DNA from: Candidatus Vampirococcus lugosii | GTDB lineage: Bacteria > Patescibacteriota > Gracilibacteria > Absconditabacterales > Absconditicoccaceae | Assembly: GCF_018420025.1 (NCBI RefSeq) | Contig: NZ_JAEDAM010000053.1 | Coordinates: 1-7,081 of the forward strand | Reading direction: 5' to 3' | Length of the DNA stretch: 7,081 bases | Shown here: positions 1-7,081 of the stretch, piece after piece | Layout of the letters: each line of letters starts with the position of its first letter | Position numbering within the stretch: the first letter of the stretch is position 1 | Made by a program: the position numbers and the translations under genes | The notes under the pieces: generated by a model | Databases searched by the model: none | Seen by the model: the letters and a program-made list of their open reading frames with translations, nothing else | Told to the model about the DNA's origin: nothing

Positions 1-90
1 CTACAGAGTGGTGTAAGAAGGGAATTAGCGACTGGGGTAAAGTCGTAACAAGGTATCCCTACGGGAACGTGGGGATGGACCATCTTTAAA
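1..90 (+). rRNA. rrs: 16S (SSU) rRNA, 3'-terminal ~90 nt; the 5' part lies outside the window
   Basis: Positions 40-55, AAGTCGTAACAAGGTA, are the universally conserved target region of the 1492R primer. Positions 31-55 match E. coli GACTGGGGTGAAGTCGTAACAAGGTA with one mismatch. Positions 55-76 fold as helix 45 (atccctacg / GGAA loop / cgtggggat; 9 bp including one G.U). The tail ggaccatctttaaa (77-90) aligns with GGAUCACCUCCUUA. The mature 3' end is placed by alignment from memory and is uncertain by a few nt. Confidence 0.9.
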
Positions 91-181
91 GTAAAGATAT
101 AAGTAGAGAATAAAATAAACAAAGGTTTATATACCATACTTCTTTTAATTATTATTGCATTGATATGAATATAAAATGTTT

Positions 182-216
182 AAAAAAAGCTAATTATTAA
201 TTTAATTAGTTTTTTT
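182..216 (+). terminator. possible weak intrinsic terminator downstream of the 16S gene
   Basis: An A-tract (182-188) is followed by the hairpin gctaatta (189-196) / taattagt (203-210) with a ~6-nt loop, then TTTTTT (211-216). The stem is almost all A-T with a single G-C pair, so it is thermodynamically weak. Such structures arise easily in AT-rich DNA. Confidence 0.25.
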
Positions 217-310
217 GTTGATTTTTTTAATGAAATTATTATATATACTATATATTATACTTAAGTTTTGTTTAAGTATAAATTTATTTATATTTATTAC
301 CAAAAAATAT

Positions 311-436
311 ATGAAAAATATGTGAGATAGATTTAATTTGTTAGGTGCAATAACTAAAGAAAAAAGTAAAAAGTTTTTTTCTCTTTTATTAGCTTTTCTA
401 TTAGTTTTTTCCAATATGACAAATTTTATTTATGCT
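311..436 (+). other. predicted Sec-type signal peptide (n-region KEKSKK, h-region FFSLLLAFLLVF, candidate cleavage IYA/IV)
   Basis: A basic stretch is followed by a 12-residue hydrophobic core and a small-residue x-A site (gct at 434-436). The n-region is long if ATG 311 is the true start. This is a by-eye prediction only. Confidence 0.5.
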
Positions 437-3400
437 ATTGTTCCTTCTGAGTATTTTCAATTTATAAAATCATCAAATCAAGACAATGTTGATTGAAATT
501 CTTTTGTAATAAAAAATTACACAGATATACAATGAACTTCTTCAGATTTATTTACTTGATTTGATAGTAATGATTGGGATGAATTTGATTGAAAAGATAT
601 ATCAGTTGATATAAGTTCAGTATGAACTTGAGAAATACATTGATTTACTTTGTGATCATGAGATAATGCAAACATAACTAATTTTGTATGAGTGCAAGAT
701 CAAGCTGATTTAGTCAGTAAAATAGAATCTTTACAATTTGCAAAAAATCTTACTGATTATTATAAACTTTTCTTAGATAATAATTTTTATTCTTTGAGAA
801 TTAATTTTGAAGATTGATATACTTTGGATTTTGTTGATCTAATTGGTTCAATGTCAATTGAAGAAGCATTAAGTTGACAAATTAAACAAATCTCTTGAGA
901 ATGAAATTATTGAACTTGAATAACAGAAAATATTGATTCATTTATAAGTAGTATAAGTGAAAATATTGAATATACAAGTTTTGATAATATTTTGGAAACA
1001 GAGACGATTTTATGAGAAGTTTTTGAACAAGTTGATGATCTTTATAGTATTTTTTCATTTTGATATCAAGATATTAAATTAGATGATAATAAATTTGTTA
1101 TCAAAAATCTTACTGATACAAAAGATGGAGATAATTTTAAAGAATTTTTTGTAAATACTGATCAATTGGATAGTAAGGATTTTGGTGCTGGTAAAAGTGT
1201 ATTGGTAGATTTAGAAAATGAAAAAGATTGAAAAATTTATTGATTTACAGTTTGAACTTGATCTACTGCAAATGAATTGATTTTTACTTGAAGTGGTGTT
1301 GATAGTATTGAAACTTTGATATGACAAATAGAATCATTGCAATTTGCAAAAAATCTTACTGATTATAATAATATTTTCTTGGAGAAAGAATTTTTGTCTT
1401 TGAAAATGAATTTTGAATGAGATAAAAGTATTGAATTGATAGATTTGATAGGATTGGATTATGCCTCTTGAGCTTTGGCTCAACTAGATACAGATCTTAA
1501 AACTTTTTTAACCAGTAATACTGAACCAGGGCTTTGAGAAACTATTTGAGATTGAGAATATTGAGATGCATCTGATACTCAAAATACTATTGATACTTTA
1601 ATTTGAATGATTGAAGATAATATAGATTTTTGAGATAGTGCAGATTATACATTAAATCAAAATGTTATTTTGTGAGAAATATTTAAAAATGCTTATCAGT
1701 GGAAAGATTGAGATTTAAGTGAAAATGATATAGTAGTTAAAAATCTTACTGATACAAAAATTTGAGAAGATTTTAAAGAAATTTTTGTAGATTCATCAAG
1801 TTTTGAAAACAAAAATTTTGGTTCTGGTGAAAATGTATTGGTAGATTTAGAAAAATTAGATAATTGAGAAATACATTGATTTACTTTGTGATCATGAGAT
1901 ACAGCAAATACAATTAATTTTGTATGACTTGAAAGTCAAGAAGATTTATTGAATGCAATAAAATCTTTTGAGTTCTTTAAAAATTATACTAATTATGGTG
2001 ATATATTTTTAGATAATGATTTTTTAACTGTAAAAATTAATTTTGATGATTGAGGAAGTTTATTATTAGTTGATTTAATTTCTTATAATGCAATTAATGC
2101 AATTGATGCAACAGTAAAAGATTATATAGAAAATAATTCAGCAAATGGAAAAGATTCTTTTGATGTTTCTATTGCAAATCTTGAAACTTTAAAGAAAATA
2201 GATTGAGTTTGAGATTCTACAGCAAACGATATTATTGATTTTTTTGGTTCAGGAGCTAATTTACCAGTTTGTAATATTTTGGATTTAGGTGAAGATTTAT
2301 GGGAAAATCCTTGAGTTACATATCAAAACTTGAAAAATACTTCTCATATCTCTATAAATAAATCTTGTGATTTATGATGAAGTTCTATTTGAGAAATAAT
2401 TATTTGAATGCTTACGGCAAATATAGAATATAATCAAATTGATTGAGATTGAGAAACTGATTGACAAATAATTTTGTGAGTTGTTGCTGATTATGTTGAA
2501 TCAGAAGAAGAATTAGTAGTAGATCCTCTTGAGGAATTAGTTGTTCAATATAATTTAATTTGATCTTGATTAAACCTTGTTTGAATTCAAAATAATTTTG
2601 ATCAGGTTTCAACTTGAAATATTCAAAATTTTACAGGTTTATCTTTCTCAAAAGAAAGTTTATGAAAAATTGAATTCAATACTTGATTTAATTTAACAAA
2701 TACTTGAACTATTGATTTTTTAAGTGGTTTAAACGATCAATTAGCAATGTCAGGTTGATATATACAATTTGATGCTGATGATTCTGTTTTTGATGTGTCA
2801 GCTACATTATCTATGAATTTGGAATGAGAATATGCAACTTGATTTGTAGAATATGCTAGTGGATGGGATTGAGAAGATTTTGATTGGATAAGTGTAAAAG
2901 ATAGTGATTGAAATGAAATTGAAGATTTATCAAATAAAATATCAAATTTAACTTGATCTTGTGATAATTGAGATTGTACAGTAAGTTTTGATACTGATTG
3001 ATTTACTTCTTTTGATCTGAATTTTGAAGTTTTGGAAGAAGTTGTTGACCCAGAAGAATATGAAATAGAATTTAATGTAAGTCCAGAAAATGCACAAATA
3101 GAAATTGATTGAAATACATATTCTCATAATCAAACTTGAAGTTTTGCTGATTGAAGCTATAATTATACTGCAAGTTTAACTTGATTTGTAACTAAAACTT
3201 GAACTTTTGAAGTAAGTTGAACTTGAAAAACTGTTAGTATTGAATTAGAAGAAGAAGTTGTTGACCCAGAAGAATATGAAATAGAATTTAATTTAAGTCC
3301 AGAAAATGCACAAATAGAAATTGATTGACAAACATATTTAAATAATTGAACATGAAGTTTTGTTAACTGAACTTATGAATATACTGCAAGTTTAACTTGA

Positions 3401-6400
3401 TTTGTAACTAAAACTTGAACTTTTGAAGTAAGTTGAACTTGAAAAACTGTTAGTATTGAATTAATTCAACCTTATTGAGAAGCTGAAATTAATAATATTT
3501 GTTTCTATTCTTATACAGATACTAATGAACAAGAATATTGTGATAAAAATATATTTAAAGATTCATTTAATGTTTATTTAACTTGAAATATTAATTGAAA
3601 TTCATTGTGAATAGCTAGTTGATATGATGATGAAGATTATAGTTTTGTATCAAAATATATTGATTCTCAATGAGAAGAAATAGAACTTGATTGATATCTT
3701 TATGAAAATAGAGATTGAGATATTGAGATAAGTTTTTATCTTGAAACATATAATCATGAAGAATGAGAAAATTTTGATATTAGTTCTTGAACTTGAACAT
3801 TAGAAATTAAATTCTTTTACAAAGAAGAAGAAGTAATATTATTGGAACAAGAAATGTTCTATGATAATGAAAAACCTCTTGTTACAGATATTTCTTCTGT
3901 AGATAATAATGATTGAACTTTTACTTTAACTGCTACTTGAACAGATAATTATTGAATAGAAAATTTTTATTGGTATGAAAATAATCCTGATAATTGTCAA
4001 AATTATCAAAATTATCAAATTAAATCTATATCTATGGAATGAGGAACTAATTGATTTTGTTGATATGATAGTTTTGCTACTTGATCAACAATAACAATAA
4101 CTCCTGATAGAGAAGAATATTTTGTAAAAACTTATGATTATGTTTGAAATTATTGAACTTGAAATATTAAATTAGATTTACAAGTTTCAAAACCTGAAAA
4201 TTTAATATCAACTTGAATTACTAATAATTGATTTACTATTGAATGGAATGAAGTAGAATGAGTTGATTCTTATGAAGTATTATTAAATTGAGAATTTAAA
4301 GAAAATGTATGAACTTGAACAAGTTATACTTTTGAAGGTTTAAGTTGATCTAAAAATTATTATCCATGAGTAAAAGCTGTTGAATGAGAAATAAAATCTG
4401 CTATTAATCAAATAAAAGTAAGAACATTATGAAATGAATTAAATTTGAATGTAAATGTAGATGAAAAATGTTTAGCTCCTGAATGAGAAAATCAAGAATG
4501 GTTATGGGTAAGACTTACAAAATCTTGATCTACAAATTGGAGAGATAATAAATATTCTTCAAGAAGTTTAACACAAACTTGAATAAATATTTTATTTGAA
4601 GATATTTCTTGAGATTATAGTTATAGAATTTCTACATGAAGATGTGGTGTCGTTAATTGAAGTTTAAATATTGATGGTGTTACTACTGAAACTGTAGAAA
4701 TATGAGTTGGTAAATGGATACAAACTATTATTAGAGAAAATACTTATACTTGAAGTATAGTAAGTAATTATAATTTACAATTAATAGATACTAATAGTAC
4801 TAAATCAACATTTGTTAGTTCTCAAACATGAACATTATTAAATTTATGAAATAATGATTATACAGTTAATATTAGAGATTGACAAACTTGGGCTAATAAA
4901 AATGTTGTTTGAATATATAGTTGAGCTAGTGAACTTTCTACATGAAATATATTAGAAAATTCTGATTATTCTACTTGAGATACTATAACAGTAGTAGTTC
5001 AAGAATGAAAAGTTATAAAATGAACTACAAATAGAGATTGATATATAAGTTTATATAATTCTACAACAAATTCTTATATAGCTTGAACAAGTATTAGAAA
5101 TTGAGAATTTGTGATGATGTGAATTCCAGCTTGAGAATATACTATAAATGCTAGGTCAAATAATTATAATTATAAAAATTATTCAAATTGAATTACAATA
5201 AATTGAGATTGAAATATTATTACTCATAATATTAATTTTGAACAAAAGGATTTAGATATATCATGAGAGTTTTCTAAAGATTATGCTTTAGAATGAAAAA
5301 ATATCTTTTTAAAACTTAATCCAAGTGAAAATAATTCTTGAAATATTAAATTTTTATCAGGTGATGATATAATAAATACTGCAAGTTATAGAGTTTTGGA
5401 TGATAATTGAGATTTGGTTAGTACTTGAACTATTGATTTGACAAATGGAGAAGATATAAATAATTTAAATTGAAATAATATTACAGTTAATTTACTATTA
5501 AAAGATAGTATTGATACTGATATTAATTTCTTAAGTATTGAGTTTGAAGCTTGAGATAATAAATTAGAATTATCTATTCCTATTGTTAGAATAGAATATA
5601 ATTCTCCTGCTACTGTAATTGAATGAGAAAAATTTAATGTAAGAGGTTTTGCAAGTCCTAATTCATTTATACATATATTACACAAATGAAATCTTATTTG
5701 AACTTGATCTACAAATAGAAATTGATGATTTAGTATAGAATCAAAAATAGAACAAGCTTGAACTTGAACAATTTTGATAAAAGATATTACTAATGATGTC
5801 TTTTCTGAAACATCAGATATTGAAGTTTGATCAAAAGATTGAGATTTACCTATATTAGAAAATTATGAAATAAAGGTAAATAATAATTCTAGAATAGATG
5901 AAGAAAATTGAAAAATACAATATTTTTCTGTTTGGGCTAATTTTAATCTTACAAGTGCTGATAAAGTAGAAGTTTTGGCTGATATAACAAATAATCCAGA
6001 TGAAGTAAATTATTATGTATGATGAGAAAAATTGACAAATTGAGTATTTGCGAAATGAACATATATTTGATATTGAACTAAAGATGTAGTTATTGAATAT
6101 ATTAAAAATAATAAAAAATATACTCAAACTATAGCAAAAATGGTAGTTTTGATTGATCCTGCTTGATTTGTATACAATAAAGATACTAATGAAAAAATTG
6201 CTTGAATAGAAGCAAAATTATATGAATTAGTTGATGAAAATTGAGATAGAATTGAAGATAAAACTTGAGTTGATGAAAGTTTATTATTATCTTGAGCATA
6301 TAGAGCTTGAAATTGATATAATAAAGATGATATAATAAATGATATAGATGTATGTAAATGATGATGAACTGCTTATCCATGTGAATGGCAAGAGTATGAT

Positions 6401-7081
6401 TCAAGTTGATATTGAGAAGAACCAAATCCACAAATTACAGATGAAGAATGAAAATATGCTTGGATGACTCCTACAGGTTTCTATTATGTAGATTTTACTT
6501 CAAATGATAATGATAAATATGATAATTTTGAATCAAATGTAGTATTTATACCACCAGAAGTAAGTGATCTTGATATATGAATTTATTACAAAGATTGATT
6601 TGAAGTTACTGAAAGTATTGATAATTGAGAAAGAAAAAGAACTTGGAATTGAACAGATAATAAATGGAATGATTGGGAATATACTTGTAATAGTGGTTAT
6701 GAAATAGATTGAAATGAATGTAAAAAATCTTCTTCATGAGGATGATGAGGATGATGAGGATGATGAGGATGATGAACTATATGGACTACACCAAGTGATG
6801 AAAATGATGAACAAGAGGAAAATAATGAAAGTGATGAACAAGAGGAAAATAATGAAAGTGATGAACAAGATGAAAATAATGAAAGTGATGAACAAGAGGA
6901 AACTGATGAAAATGATGAACAAGAGGAAACTGATGAAAATGATGAACAAGAGGAAACTGATGAAAATGATGAACAAGATAAAAATAATGAAAATGATGAA
7001 CAAGAGGAAAATAATGGACAAAAAAAATTATCGGAATATATAAAAGAACTTGAAGAACAGATACAATCTGAACAAAAATTG
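311..7081 (+). CDS. giant secreted multi-domain surface protein (putative adhesin), 3'-partial, at least 2,257 codons; requires translation table 25 (TGA=Gly)
   Basis: Hand translation of frame 2 (codons starting at 311, 314, ...) finds no TAA or TAG up to the last complete codon, 7079-7081. By hand count there are ~190 in-frame TGA, ~35 GGN and 19 TGG codons. Recognisable PEGA, FN3 and prealbumin-like motifs appear only in this frame. The N-terminus reads MKNMGDRFNLLGAITKEKSKKFFSLLLAFLLVFSNMTNFIYA/IVPSE. The start is uncertain: the frame is open from 206, and ATG 230, ATG 320, TTG 338 and ATG 416 are alternatives. ATG 311 gives the best n-h-c signal-peptide layout. Confidence 0.85.
497..1087 (+). 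repeat. N-terminal module copy 1 (~197 aa) of an unassigned ~200-aa repeat
   Basis: Shared landmarks, in order: FVIKNYTDIQG; GEIHGFTLGSGDNANITNFVG; IESLQFAKNLTDY; LRINFEDG; VDLIG; ILGEVFEQ. A 38-nt exact DNA match links 628-665 to 1864-1901. A 27-nt exact match links 734-760 to 1340-1366. Confidence 0.8.
1088..1726 (+). repeat. N-terminal module copy 2 (~213 aa)
   Basis: Landmarks: FVIKNLTDTKDGDNFKEFFV; FGAGKSVLVDLE; GKIYGFTVGTGSTANELIFTG; IESLQFAKNLTDY; LKMNFEGD; IDLIG; ILGEIFKN. These are collinear with copies 1 and 3. A 21-nt exact match links 1103-1123 to 1739-1759. Confidence 0.8.
1727..2330 (+). repeat. N-terminal module copy 3 (~200 aa; the 3' boundary is approximate and the tail is diverged)
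   Basis: Landmarks: VVKNLTDTKIGEDFKEIFV; FGSGENVLVDLE; GEIHGFTLGSGDTANTINFVG; IKSFEFFKNYTNY; VKINFDDGG; VDLIS. Similarity to copies 1 and 2 fades after ~2100. Confidence 0.7.
3035..3250 (+). repeat. PEGA-like domain, tandem copy 1 (72 aa)
   Basis: The sequence EEVVDPEEYEIEFNVSPENAQIEIDGNTYSHNQTGSFADGSYNYTASLTGFVTKTGTFEVSGTGKTVSIEL fits the PEGA pattern (s.PegA.v.vDG ... l..G.y.y.v...Gy ... v.v..g....v.v.L), with PENA in place of PEGA. By hand alignment it is ~92% identical in DNA to 3251-3466. Confidence 0.6.
3251..3466 (+). repeat. PEGA-like domain, tandem copy 2 (72 aa)
   Basis: The sequence is EEVVDPEEYEIEFNLSPENAQIEIDGQTYLNNGTGSFVNGTYEYTASLTGFVTKTGTFEVSGTGKTVSIEL. The offset from copy 1 is exactly 216 nt: gttgttgaccc occurs at 3041 and 3257, and ctgttagtattgaatta at 3231 and 3447. 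Confidence 0.6.
3875..4186 (+). other. possible bacterial Ig-like (Big_7-like) beta-sandwich domain
   Basis: The sequence reads PLVTDISSVDNNDGTFTLTATGTDNYGIENFYWYENN ... STITITPDREEYFVKTYDYVGNYGTGNIKLDL. It resembles the pattern 't.tatA.D..gi..v.fy.n ... a.a.D..Gn...s..i.l.v'. It contains one Cys pair (3995-3997 and 4058-4060). This is weak, by-eye evidence only. Confidence 0.3.
4193..4426 (+). other. fibronectin type III (FN3)-like domain
   Basis: The sequence PENLISTGITNNGFTIEWNEVEGVDSYEVLLNGEFKENVGTGTSYTFEGLSGSKNYYPGVKAVEGEIKSAINQIKVRT fits the classic FN3 layout: P.nl...t..s.ti.W..v.g...Y.v..ng......t.t.ytf.gL.....Y...V.A......S..i.v.T. It has the conserved Trp (tgg 4244-4246) and Tyr residues. 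Confidence 0.6.
4984..5242 (+). other. carboxypeptidase-regulatory-like / prealbumin-fold domain (tentative)
   Basis: The sequence is ITVVVQEGKVIKGTTNRDGYISLYNSTTNSYIAGTSIRNGEFVMMGIPAGEYTINARSNNYNYKNYSNGITINGDGNIITHNINFE. The core NGEFvmmgIPAGEYtInars.nY matches the family hallmark '(d)G.F.l..lp.G.Y.l.v...gY'. Confidence 0.4.
5585..5785 (+). other. possible Ig-like beta-sandwich domain
   Basis: The sequence VRIEYNSPATVIEGEKFNVRGFASPNSFIHILHKGNLIGTGSTNRNGGFSIESKIEQAGTGTILIKD resembles the common bacterial surface-protein pattern 'v.G.a.p.s.v.v...g..iGt..t...G.fsi.......G...i.v.d'. By eye only. Confidence 0.3.
6143..6577 (+). other. Cna-B / SdrD-B / prealbumin-like fold domain with an inserted Cys-pair loop (tentative)
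   Basis: It opens with VVLIDPAGFVYNKDTNEKIAGIEAKLYEL (family pattern 'IDPsG.VYd..t..Pi.Ga.v.L'). It closes with NPQITDEEGKYAWMTPTGFYYVDF ... VVFIPPEVSDLDI (pattern 'np..Td..G.y.f..p.G.Y.v'). The insert includes DVCKGGGTAYPCEW. Confidence 0.4.
6737..6775 (+). repeat. 13-codon poly-glycine run written as TGA/GGA, (TGA GGA TGA) x4 plus one TGA
   Basis: In-frame codons: tga gga tga tga gga tga tga gga tga tga gga tga tga. That is 9 TGA and 4 GGA, flanked by KKSSS and TIWTTPS. The run has 9-nt DNA periodicity. Confidence 0.8.
6794..7018 (+). repeat. tandem 27-nt (9-aa) acidic repeat, 8 full copies plus a partial leader; consensus [N/S]DEQEE[N/T][N/D]E
   Basis: Units start at 6803, 6830, 6857, 6884, 6911, 6938, 6965 and 6992. 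They encode NDEQEENNE, SDEQEENNE, SDEQDENNE, SDEQEETDE, NDEQEETDE, NDEQEETDE, NDEQDKNNE and NDEQEENNG. Units 5 and 6 are identical in DNA. Confidence 0.9.

Follow-up and report, generated by a model that had tools for sequence, protein, structure and literature searches.

How predatory members of the CPR (candidate phyla radiation), Vampirococcus and Absconditicoccus among them, identify their prey and keep hold of it is a matter in which giant surface proteins are the usual suspects, with no molecular handle so far. Candidatus Vampirococcus lugosii has a Gram-positive-type wall and a fibrous, 'sticky' surface, and is seen as piles of cells; its giant membrane proteins were proposed to form this fibrous surface and to mediate attachment to the host (PMC8080830). 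The prey of Absconditicoccus praedator is Halorhodospira (PMC11452946). In Gracilibacteria, Sieber et al. (2019) described a hypervariable surface protein with PTD repeats, a repeat that is also present in an extracellular protein of Colwellia (PMC6851277). Here we analyse a stretch of 7,081 nucleotides (contig NZ_JAEDAM010000053.1, positions 1 to 7,081 of the forward strand, hereafter the window), which codes for a giant protein of this kind up to its residue 2,257. Its sequence makes it probable that the protein is a giant cell-surface fibril with an adhesion head, made by an Absconditabacteria-type bacterium related to Vampirococcus, the surface of a prey or a ligand that its adhesins bind too being the likeliest target. 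The protein provides the handle that was missing, in the form of an alignable head module of about 190 residues that lies outside the family databases.

The head module and its relatives

The part of the gene that carries the argument is its 5' third, where positions are those of the window and residues (aa) those of the protein read from ATG 311:

311..7081, + strand: open reading frame, 2,257 codons under genetic code 25, running past the end of the window
482..1078, + strand: head module 1 (aa 58-256), internal repeat, 63% identity to module 3 of the V. lugosii protein P0001 (175 aa aligned), 125.5 bits against a proteobacterial profile
1079..1720, + strand: head module 2 (aa 257-470), internal repeat, nearest to V. 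lugosii module 2 (47%), 119.6 bits against the same profile
1721..2380, + strand: head module 3 (aa 471-690), internal repeat, 98.8 bits against the same profile
2381..3034, + strand: beta-rich segment (aa 691-908), ending with C884-x4-C889

The initial annotation had set apart three unassigned modules of about 200 aa. Compared as internal repeats, they are paralogues within the boundaries given above, 39-46% identical to one another. Each contains the motif KN(L/Y)T(D/N) twice (512-526, 752-766, 1103-1117, 1355-1369, 1739-1753 and 1982-1996), invariant across the three copies of the window and mostly kept by their relatives as KNxSD and NxTxY. At the level of DNA, modules 1 and 3, whose proteins are about 34-46% identical depending on the alignment, have an identical run of 38 nt (628-665 and 1864-1901), which suggests intragenic gene conversion. 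Behind module 3, at aa ~698-731 (2402-2503), stands the C-terminal piece of a fourth module, an orphan that matches the end of V. lugosii module 3 with 55% identity over 42 aa. Because of this orphan piece, and because the order of the modules differs in V. lugosii, the sequences point to module shuffling. The segment aa 691-908 has no family match in Pfam or NCBIfam, and it ends in the CxxxxC pair that had been reported there (aa 884/889).

Finding the relatives of this module was a matter of method. Word-indexed protein searches returned none, be it with the glycine translation, with a profile of the three modules or with TGA translated as tryptophan, and a degenerate two-motif pattern that matches all three modules of the window found nothing in metagenome or viral contigs. 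Exact DNA scans for the window, and a degenerate pattern of the 16S tail, met no match in genome, metagenome or viral contigs either. The word-indexed blanks were false negatives, since an exhaustive profile search later found relatives. Its query was an alignment of the TGA-free cores of the three modules (31-41 aa, 41 positions) and its target 1.84e9 representative proteins. Ten proteins were retrieved at E<=1e-3, the best with 155 bits, and nine of them are real; the tenth, P0007 (130 aa), was discarded as a low-complexity artefact. With proteins written in code 25, word-indexed searches can thus give a false answer of no homologue, whereas a profile of TGA-free fragments recovered the family. 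The nine carriers are the following:

P0001: partial hypothetical protein of 975 aa, Candidatus Vampirococcus lugosii (MBS8122346.1 / WP_439099515.1)
P0002 and P0004: metagenomic proteins on contigs with many in-frame TGA (31% and 28% GC)
P0003: Ectothiorhodospira sp. BSL-9, 6,526 aa (ANB03168.1)
P0005: Thioalkalivibrio sp. AKL12, 3,085 aa (WP_231376868.1)
P0006: 633 aa, on the standard-code contig L003 (ENA ERZ27301260, 12.8 kb, 39% GC)
P0008: Rhabdonatronobacter, 3,360 aa (NYS25581.1)
P0009: 3,801 aa
P0010: Ectothiorhodospira magna, partial

Homology holds in both directions. A profile of 213 columns, built from the modules of the window alone, covers about 115-210 residues in 9/9 real matches, with independent E values of 6e-9 to 4e-50. 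Conversely, a profile built from eight proteobacterial copies alone gives the three modules the scores listed above, equivalent to E values of 2e-31 to 3e-23 at the scale of 1.84e9 proteins, while the best of 200 shuffled sequences reaches 6 bits. Identity between window and proteobacterial modules is 27-38% over about 190 aa, and the modules of the window match the conserved blocks FV(I/L)KNxSD, IYGFTLG, SxxFAxNLTxY..F.DKEFLS.K.NF, ELIDLI and GxGxYG....D. In a distance tree the code-25 copies form one cluster and the proteobacterial copies another, window module 1 pairing with V. lugosii module 3 (60-63%) and window module 2 with V. lugosii module 2 (47%). No family of Pfam, NCBIfam, PHROGs or PDB covers the module, and none of Pfam or NCBIfam does so in any of its carriers; PDB profile searches with the module came back empty. 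Judged from these alignments, the head module is an undescribed family with unambiguous homology across phyla, carried by bacteria of saline lakes. The 'novel module' of the initial annotation is new to the family databases in this sense, but not to sequence space, where it has relatives. Of the V. lugosii copies, the one nearest to window module 1 was modelled with AlphaFold2 from an alignment of 13 rows, as a mixed alpha/beta domain (predicted local distance difference test score 67, predicted template modelling score 0.70); a model of a 41-aa fragment, a single helix, was set aside as meaningless.

A candidate functional signature lies in module 3. For this and all later domain calls, Pfam was scanned both segment by segment and on the whole protein, gathering scores serving as thresholds. 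An insertion of 14 aa gives module 3 a helix-hairpin-helix match at aa 622-644 (Pfam HHH, E 3.6e-4 when the module is scanned alone), together with a weak comEA match (E 0.026, module alone). This might point to capture of extracellular DNA, feeding a nucleotide-importing bacterium, and bacteria of the V. lugosii type are indeed thought to depend on DNA uptake (PMC8080830). However, the match stays below its gathering threshold (16.3 bits versus 24 in the whole-protein scan), it arises from an insertion in a helix that all modules have, it is a single motif with no PDB relative (a PDB search with module 3 found no match), and the protein that bears it is polyanionic. DNA capture is exceedingly improbable on this evidence, and the match would most simply be a by-product of insertion into the shared helix.

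The surroundings of the module in its carriers are informative about function. Code-25 carriers place two to three tandem modules behind a signal sequence, V. lugosii P0001 being alone in having a spacer of about 80 aa (470-548) between its copies 2 and 3. P0002, which has 70 in-frame TGA, reads under code 25 as a signal and three modules, then a beta domain, G8 and an acidic linker, and finally a short helix and an SLH-like end; this is the order of the window, which stops at the helix. P0006, found in the metagenome that also yielded P0002, runs from two modules through a beta domain, G5 and an acidic linker to a helical end, and as it belongs to a standard-code organism the architecture is not limited to code-25 bacteria. 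The proteobacterial carriers have other surroundings: P0005 is by NCBIfam a Ca2+-stabilised repeat adhesin (Ca_tandemer, 163.8 bits versus a cut-off of 50) and also bears Big_13 and Big_6 domains, P0008 has RTX nonapeptide repeats (103 bits) and a serralysin-like C-terminus, and P0009 an RTX repeat and a weak BapA prefix. In P0003 two of three modules, and in P0005 one of two, are mid-chain, the last copy of each being near the C-terminal end. From these features the proteobacterial carriers look like giant adhesin-type proteins resembling substrates of type I secretion. The named ones come from soda-lake organisms, and V. lugosii is an epibiotic predator of a hypersaline lake.

The initial annotation had read the protein as a candidate cell-surface or host-attachment adhesin. 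That reading is supported, since the modules recur both behind signal peptides in code-25 proteins and in proteobacterial giant proteins of the RTX/Ca2+ adhesin type, which gives the adhesion role an independent basis. As for the target, a prey is a likely one because the head module sits in adhesins of the Ectothiorhodospiraceae, the family of one known prey: by taxonomy look-up, Halorhodospira belongs to it. Halochromatium, the prey of Vampirococcus, is of the same order. It is tempting to go one step further and to see in the triple head an adhesion module shared by predator and prey, transferred to or from hosts of the Chromatiales type and docking through a common ligand or by pairing of modules with one another. 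We hold this extension to be rather unlikely as it stands; if it were true, host range could be read from the sequence of the module.

Export, stalk and orientation

On either side of the triple head, the part of the protein that is seen is organised as follows:

311..436, + strand: signal-peptide-like N-terminus (aa 1-42), with a basic n-region, the h-region FFSLLLAFLLVF and the c-region SNMTNFIYA
3035..3466, + strand: two tandem 72-aa PEGA / CarboxypepD_reg-like beta-sandwich domains, a 216-nt tandem repeat 92% identical
3467..3874, + strand: segment with Cys pair 1064/1077 (aa 1053-1188), weakly and locally similar to aa 845-868
3875..4186, + strand: beta-rich domain with Cys pair 1229/1250 (aa 1189-1292), matching immunoglobulin V-type PDB chains at chance level (E ~0.03)
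4187..4393, + strand: fibronectin type III domain (aa 1293-1361), fn3 (PF00041) above its gathering score when scanned alone
4394..6736, + strand: remainder of the stalk (aa 1362-2142), with sub-threshold Pfam domains, Cys pairs and a terminal Cys hairpin
6737..6775, + strand: Gly13 hinge, a 9-nt repeat x 4.4, 100% identical
6798..7016, + strand: eight acidic 9-aa repeats, [ND]E[SN]DEQ[ED][EK][NT], 27-nt period x 8.1, 93% identical
7022..7081, + strand: start of a helical, heptad-like C-terminal region, KKLSEYIKELEEQIQSEQKL, where the gene leaves the window

The signal-like N-terminus that had been seen in the sequence is present where it was placed. Four lysines (K16, K18, K20 and K21) precede FFSLLLAFLLVF, followed by SNMTNFIYA and then IV, and over 67 aa this N-terminus is 36% identical to that of V. 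lugosii P0001, including the hydrophobic core and SNM(S/T)NF(L/I)YA. The signal peptide was called by rules and by homology, isoleucine at -3 being tolerated rather than typical. It is the sole hydrophobic segment of the protein (aa 22-45), with the only 19-residue Kyte-Doolittle window above 1.6. The mature part has an isoelectric point of 4.05 and a net charge of -273, and the 14 cysteines form seven sequence-local pairs (654/686, 884/889, 1064/1077, 1229/1250, 1387/1445, 2015/2024 and 2126/2137), a pairing that random placement would give with P ~1e-4 to 1e-5. Because of this acidity, of the lack of another hydrophobic segment and of the local cysteine pairs, composition points to a location outside the cell. 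N-glycosylation sequons are not enriched (32 observed versus 34.8 expected), and the 2,257 residues seen contain no LPXTG, RGD or DxDxDG motif.

The stalk begins with the tandem pair of PEGA-like domains. The pair stands where it had been placed, but its name is less secure, as PEGA (PF08308, aa 923-980) scores 16.9 bits versus a gathering score of 20.8; CarboxypepD_reg (PF13620) gives 16.7 bits versus 32.3 on the copies of the window. The same domains are 36-46% identical to repeats of P0001 that do pass the CarboxypepD_reg threshold, with 34.0 bits versus 32.3. The two copies differ in a peculiar manner: 15 of their 19 differences fall in a 51-nt patch (3113-3163, aa 935-951) and three of the other four are in the last codon of the unit, with a ratio of non-synonymous to synonymous changes (pN/pS) of 0.86. 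Such a pattern suggests that the flanks were homogenised by gene conversion or, alternatively, that a single loop region diversified locally. A diversity-generating retroelement was considered and rejected for this patch, the 19 differences spanning all four bases in both directions and not being adenine-specific.

Further along, aa 1053-1188 have no family match in Pfam or NCBIfam; the segment and its single cysteine pair (aa 1064/1077) are where they had been described. The initial annotation then had a beta-sandwich series with motifs of FN3, CarboxypepD_reg, Ig and Cna-B type, of which FN3 stands in the segment scan, CarboxypepD_reg and Ig are sub-threshold, and Cna-B fails. Thus fn3 reaches 29.9 bits as a segment versus a gathering score of 25, and 23.8 bits in the whole-protein scan; the same region has a tblastn match to the major tail protein of a Bacillus phage (E 5e-3), beyond which PHROGs and phage tblastn searches gave nothing. 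At aa 1561-1632, EMC7 (26.4 bits versus 26.6) and CarboxypepD_reg (21.6 bits versus 32.3) are both below threshold, and so is Big_6 (PF17936, aa 1769-1835) with 22.7 bits, below 27.6. Cna-B (PF05738) has no match even at E<=10, and SpaA (PF17802), of prealbumin-like fold, only one at E 0.11. The other sub-threshold beta-sandwich matches belong to extracytoplasmic families, and a crude count of amphipathic periodicity is of beta type over most of aa 691-1990 and mixed in the modules. Sequence searches of NCBIfam, PHROGs and PDB added nothing significant.

The remainder of the stalk holds the pairs 1387/1445 and 2015/2024 and ends in a Cys hairpin (aa 2102-2141, Cys 2126/2137), including the Cys-pair motif already singled out, EYTCNSGYEIDGNEC at aa 2123-2137. 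The hairpin (window 6614-6733) reads RTWNGTDNKWNDWEYTCNSGYEIDGNEC. It has counterparts in three repeats of a 1,849-aa code-25 protein on the contig L004 (31-42% identity, pairwise E 7e-5 to 1e-8), the last of which is followed, as in the window, by a Gly-rich stretch and then a charged linker. That protein (L004 4917-10466) comes directly after the two-module protein P0004, and the two genes, between which there is a stop some 20 nt ahead of a scaffold gap, may be one; it ends in a helical domain of 330 aa with no recognisable anchor. Poly-Gly occupies the equivalent place in the homologues, as G8 in P0002 and G5 in P0006, and P0002 continues after its acidic linker with a helical segment, LKALLATLQEYEN, and then its SLH-like region. 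The poly-Gly hinge, the acidic 9-aa repeat and the heptad-like tail had each been located correctly. No SLH domain (PF00395) is found in the part seen.

Put together, these elements suggest the following sequence of events for an adhesive fibril. The protein would be exported through Sec, and its C-terminal part, beyond the window, would hold it at a Gram-positive-type wall. The Gly13 hinge and the acidic repeats would form a flexible polyanionic spacer leading through and away from the wall, while the beta-sandwich stalk would project the triple head tens of nanometres outward. There the head would bind a ligand on another cell; the likeliest target would be the prey surface, or else a ligand to which adhesins of the prey bind as well. 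On this view the protein of the window may serve attachment to a host.

A fibril need not recognise anything. The protein might instead build a fibrous layer or glue sister cells in stacks, as a structural element of the coat, and the fibrous 'sticky' surface and piled cells of V. lugosii (PMC8080830) would agree with this view, as would a strongly acidic, repetitive and beta-rich chain and the SLH-like end of the homologue P0002, typical of S-layer-associated proteins. However, a head module common to RTX adhesin-type proteins of unrelated bacteria is easier to reconcile with a unit that binds a ligand than with a lattice specific to one lineage, and the layout, with a tandem triple head borne by a long stalk, is that of an adhesin that reaches out, so that a role in coat or cohesion without host recognition seems to us doubtful, if worth keeping in mind.

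The chain might also be mounted the other way round, its N-terminal modules, or an uncleaved signal anchor, holding the envelope of the cell itself and the C-terminus acting as the working tip. Triple SLH or CWB2 repeats are the wall-binding units of wall proteins in Gram-positive bacteria, and three tandem modules behind a signal resemble this threefold arrangement; the signal sequence may not be cleaved, and the neighbouring protein of L004 has at its end 330 helical residues devoid of a recognisable anchor. Yet Pfam and NCBIfam scans show no similarity of the modules to SLH or CWB2, and the SLH-like element of P0002 is C-terminal. In P0003 and P0005 the modules are found mid-chain, the last copy being near the C-terminal end. 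In adhesins of the type I secretion system (T1SS), of the LapA or MpIBP type, it is the C-terminal end that is exposed outside. Reversed polarity fits the homologues less well than an outward-facing adhesion head does, and we think it quite unlikely.

Finally, since the C-terminus lies beyond the window, the fibril might be the carrier of a toxin or lytic effector placed there, in the manner of polymorphic toxins, helping to open the prey. Predation needs a breach of the prey envelope, and there are reports of large proteins in Gracilibacteria annotated as toxin-like (PMC6851277). However, the 2,257 residues bear no toxin, peptidase or glycosidase signature, and of the two code-25 proteins seen to their C-termini, the module-bearing P0002 and the neighbour on L004, related by its Cys hairpin alone, neither ends in a recognisable effector domain, which makes such a payload very unlikely.

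To be sure, the outward-facing adhesion fibril that we prefer has points that weigh against it. Most names given to domains of the stalk come from sub-threshold matches. The true C-terminus and any anchor are beyond the end of the window, and the C-terminal SLH match of P0002 is that of another protein and is itself sub-threshold (19.1 bits versus 20.8). The signal sequence could be an uncleaved membrane anchor, leaving the head beside the membrane. Foldseek found no match in PDB or viral structures for the model of the V. lugosii module; with a model of medium confidence and no likeness to a solved fold, the fold therefore gives no functional hint. As for the prey, the module search did not return Halochromatium or Halorhodospira, and the Proteobacteria in which it found the module include no demonstrated prey species.

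Genetic code and surroundings of the gene

Frame 2 of the window is open over 2,292 codons, with zero TAA/TAG, when the other two forward frames have about 7.5% of such codons, so that a run of this length would occur by chance with log10 P ~ -77. The 2,257 codons that run from ATG 311 to the last base comprise no TAA or TAG, 190 TGA, 19 TGG and 35 GGN. In aligned internal repeats TGA faces TGA 36 times, GGT/GGA eight times and TGG never; the Gly13 run is spelled by TGA and GGA in alternation, and homologues have glycine at columns where the gene of the window has TGA. Because TGA aligns with GGT/GGA and never with TGG, and because of the alternation within Gly13, these comparisons identify TGA as a glycine codon (code 25) in this gene. 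Tryptophan was rejected, as it would make up 9.3% of the protein and TGA never pairs with TGG in the internal repeats. The initial annotation had taken the gene for a truncated code-25 gene of more than 2,257 aa, and open frame, 190 TGA and TGA-Gly pairing all agree with it. TGA accounts for 190 of the 225 glycine codons (84%), G+C at third codon positions is 6%, and all 24 arginines are AGA or AGG; with no CGN codon at all, the reassignment of CGA/CGG to tryptophan proposed for Absconditabacteria cannot be judged on this gene.

Alignment of the N-terminus with the beginning of the V. lugosii homologue P0001 favours ATG 311 or 320 as the start over ATG 221. The latter, in frame upstream, is unlikely: it lies in a spacer of 13.6% GC and the alignment with the homologue begins at about residue 8. 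Antisense and alternative-frame open reading frames (<=109 aa) were judged to be artefacts of composition or repeats, and an exact look-up of five table-11 open reading frames of the window gave no record.

Two features upstream are not part of the protein:

1..90, + strand: bacterial 16S rRNA gene, 3' end (model positions 1439-1533 of Rfam RF00177, 51 bits, E 1.4e-12)
183..216, + strand: AT-rich hairpin with an A-run on one side and a T-run on the other, an inverted repeat of 14 nt, 93% complementary

The spacer of 13.6% GC just mentioned is that between the 16S gene and the reading frame (window 91-310). Its hairpin folds as RNA at -12.4 kcal/mol (z -3.3; 0/200 shuffles equal) and looks like a terminator. 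The 3' tail of the 16S gene (window 60-98) is GGAUGGACCAUCUUUAAA, with UCUUU in place of the anti-Shine-Dalgarno core CCUCC, and it is able to pair with the adjoining downstream bases (ATCTTTA / TAAAGAT, 82-98); no purine-rich Shine-Dalgarno sequence is present upstream of ATG 311. The anti-Shine-Dalgarno motif was detected less often in a subgroup of Parcubacteria, in a study that makes no such remark on the code-25 lineages (PMC9297842). The window has no tRNA gene, such as the tRNA-Gly(UCA) that goes with code 25, and neither 23S rRNA nor tRNA is found within 7 kb of the 16S gene; the rRNA genes are therefore unlinked. Adjacency to rRNA was rejected as a conserved context, relatives of the protein not being beside rRNA. 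The first base of the window falls within an rRNA gene, and its last lies 65 nt past the 27-nt x 8 array. Both are common assembly break points, so the window is probably an entire contig in which the assembler cut the gene.

Comparison with known systems

The layout of the protein has a familiar counterpart. MSCRAMM / Sdr adhesins, anchored in Gram-positive walls and with stalks of acidic repeats, follow a Sec signal with an N-terminal binding region, beta-sandwich spacers and a charged low-complexity repeat near the wall, and the order in the window is like theirs. The resemblance is one of layout only: unlike them, the part seen has no LPXTG, Cna-B or SdrD-type match.

The PTD-repeat protein of Gracilibacteria is closer in lineage. 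Like the protein of the window, it belongs to a code-25 CPR bacterium and has an N-terminal membrane or signal segment and a beta-rich extracellular body; a short in-frame tandem repeat broke the assembly of the PTD protein and probably that of the window, and in both an element is shared with a large extracellular protein, in the PTD case that of a co-occurring proteobacterium. The repeats differ, PTD there and acidic 9-mers here, and so does the shared element, which is a tripeptide repeat, possibly convergent, in the former and a homologous module of about 190 aa in the window.

V. lugosii P0001 is nearest of all. Both proteins have homologous signal sequences and three head modules, are written in code 25 and come from a lineage of small epibiotic predators; in both, too, tandem PEGA/CarboxypepD_reg-like domains come after a common junction motif, NQID..GDGQ(I/V)(I/V)LGVVADYVE. 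However, P0001 has its modules in a shuffled order, it has no counterpart of a segment of about 180 aa (aa 732-908 of the window), and it has at least three full PEGA-like repeats, with the start of a fourth where the record ends, against two in the window. Overall, the sequences make the two paralogue-like rather than clear orthologues. P0001 is unannotated, and its module is not discussed by Moreira et al. (2021; PMC8080830).

Giant T1SS-type adhesins with RTX or Ca2+-stabilised repeats, of the LapA, MpIBP and BapA type and represented here by the carriers from Thioalkalivibrio sp. AKL12, Ectothiorhodospira sp. BSL-9 and Rhabdonatronobacter, differ in machinery. They have no Sec signal, and they display RTX repeats, T1SS-type C-termini and Ca_tandemer/Big_13 extenders, whereas the part of the window protein seen bears none of the T1SS hallmarks, to which an N-terminal retention module also belongs; it starts with a Sec-type N-terminus, has no HemolysinCabind match and matches Ca_tandemer only at E 0.16. 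Their modules are single or dispersed; those of the window form an N-terminal tandem triple. Both kinds of protein combine special modules with a long repetitive stalk; both are strongly acidic and probably Ca2+-dependent, and both have the module of about 190 aa. By itself the protein of the window would be a further giant surface protein in a code-25 predator lineage; it is this module family, extending across phyla, that lifts it above routine.

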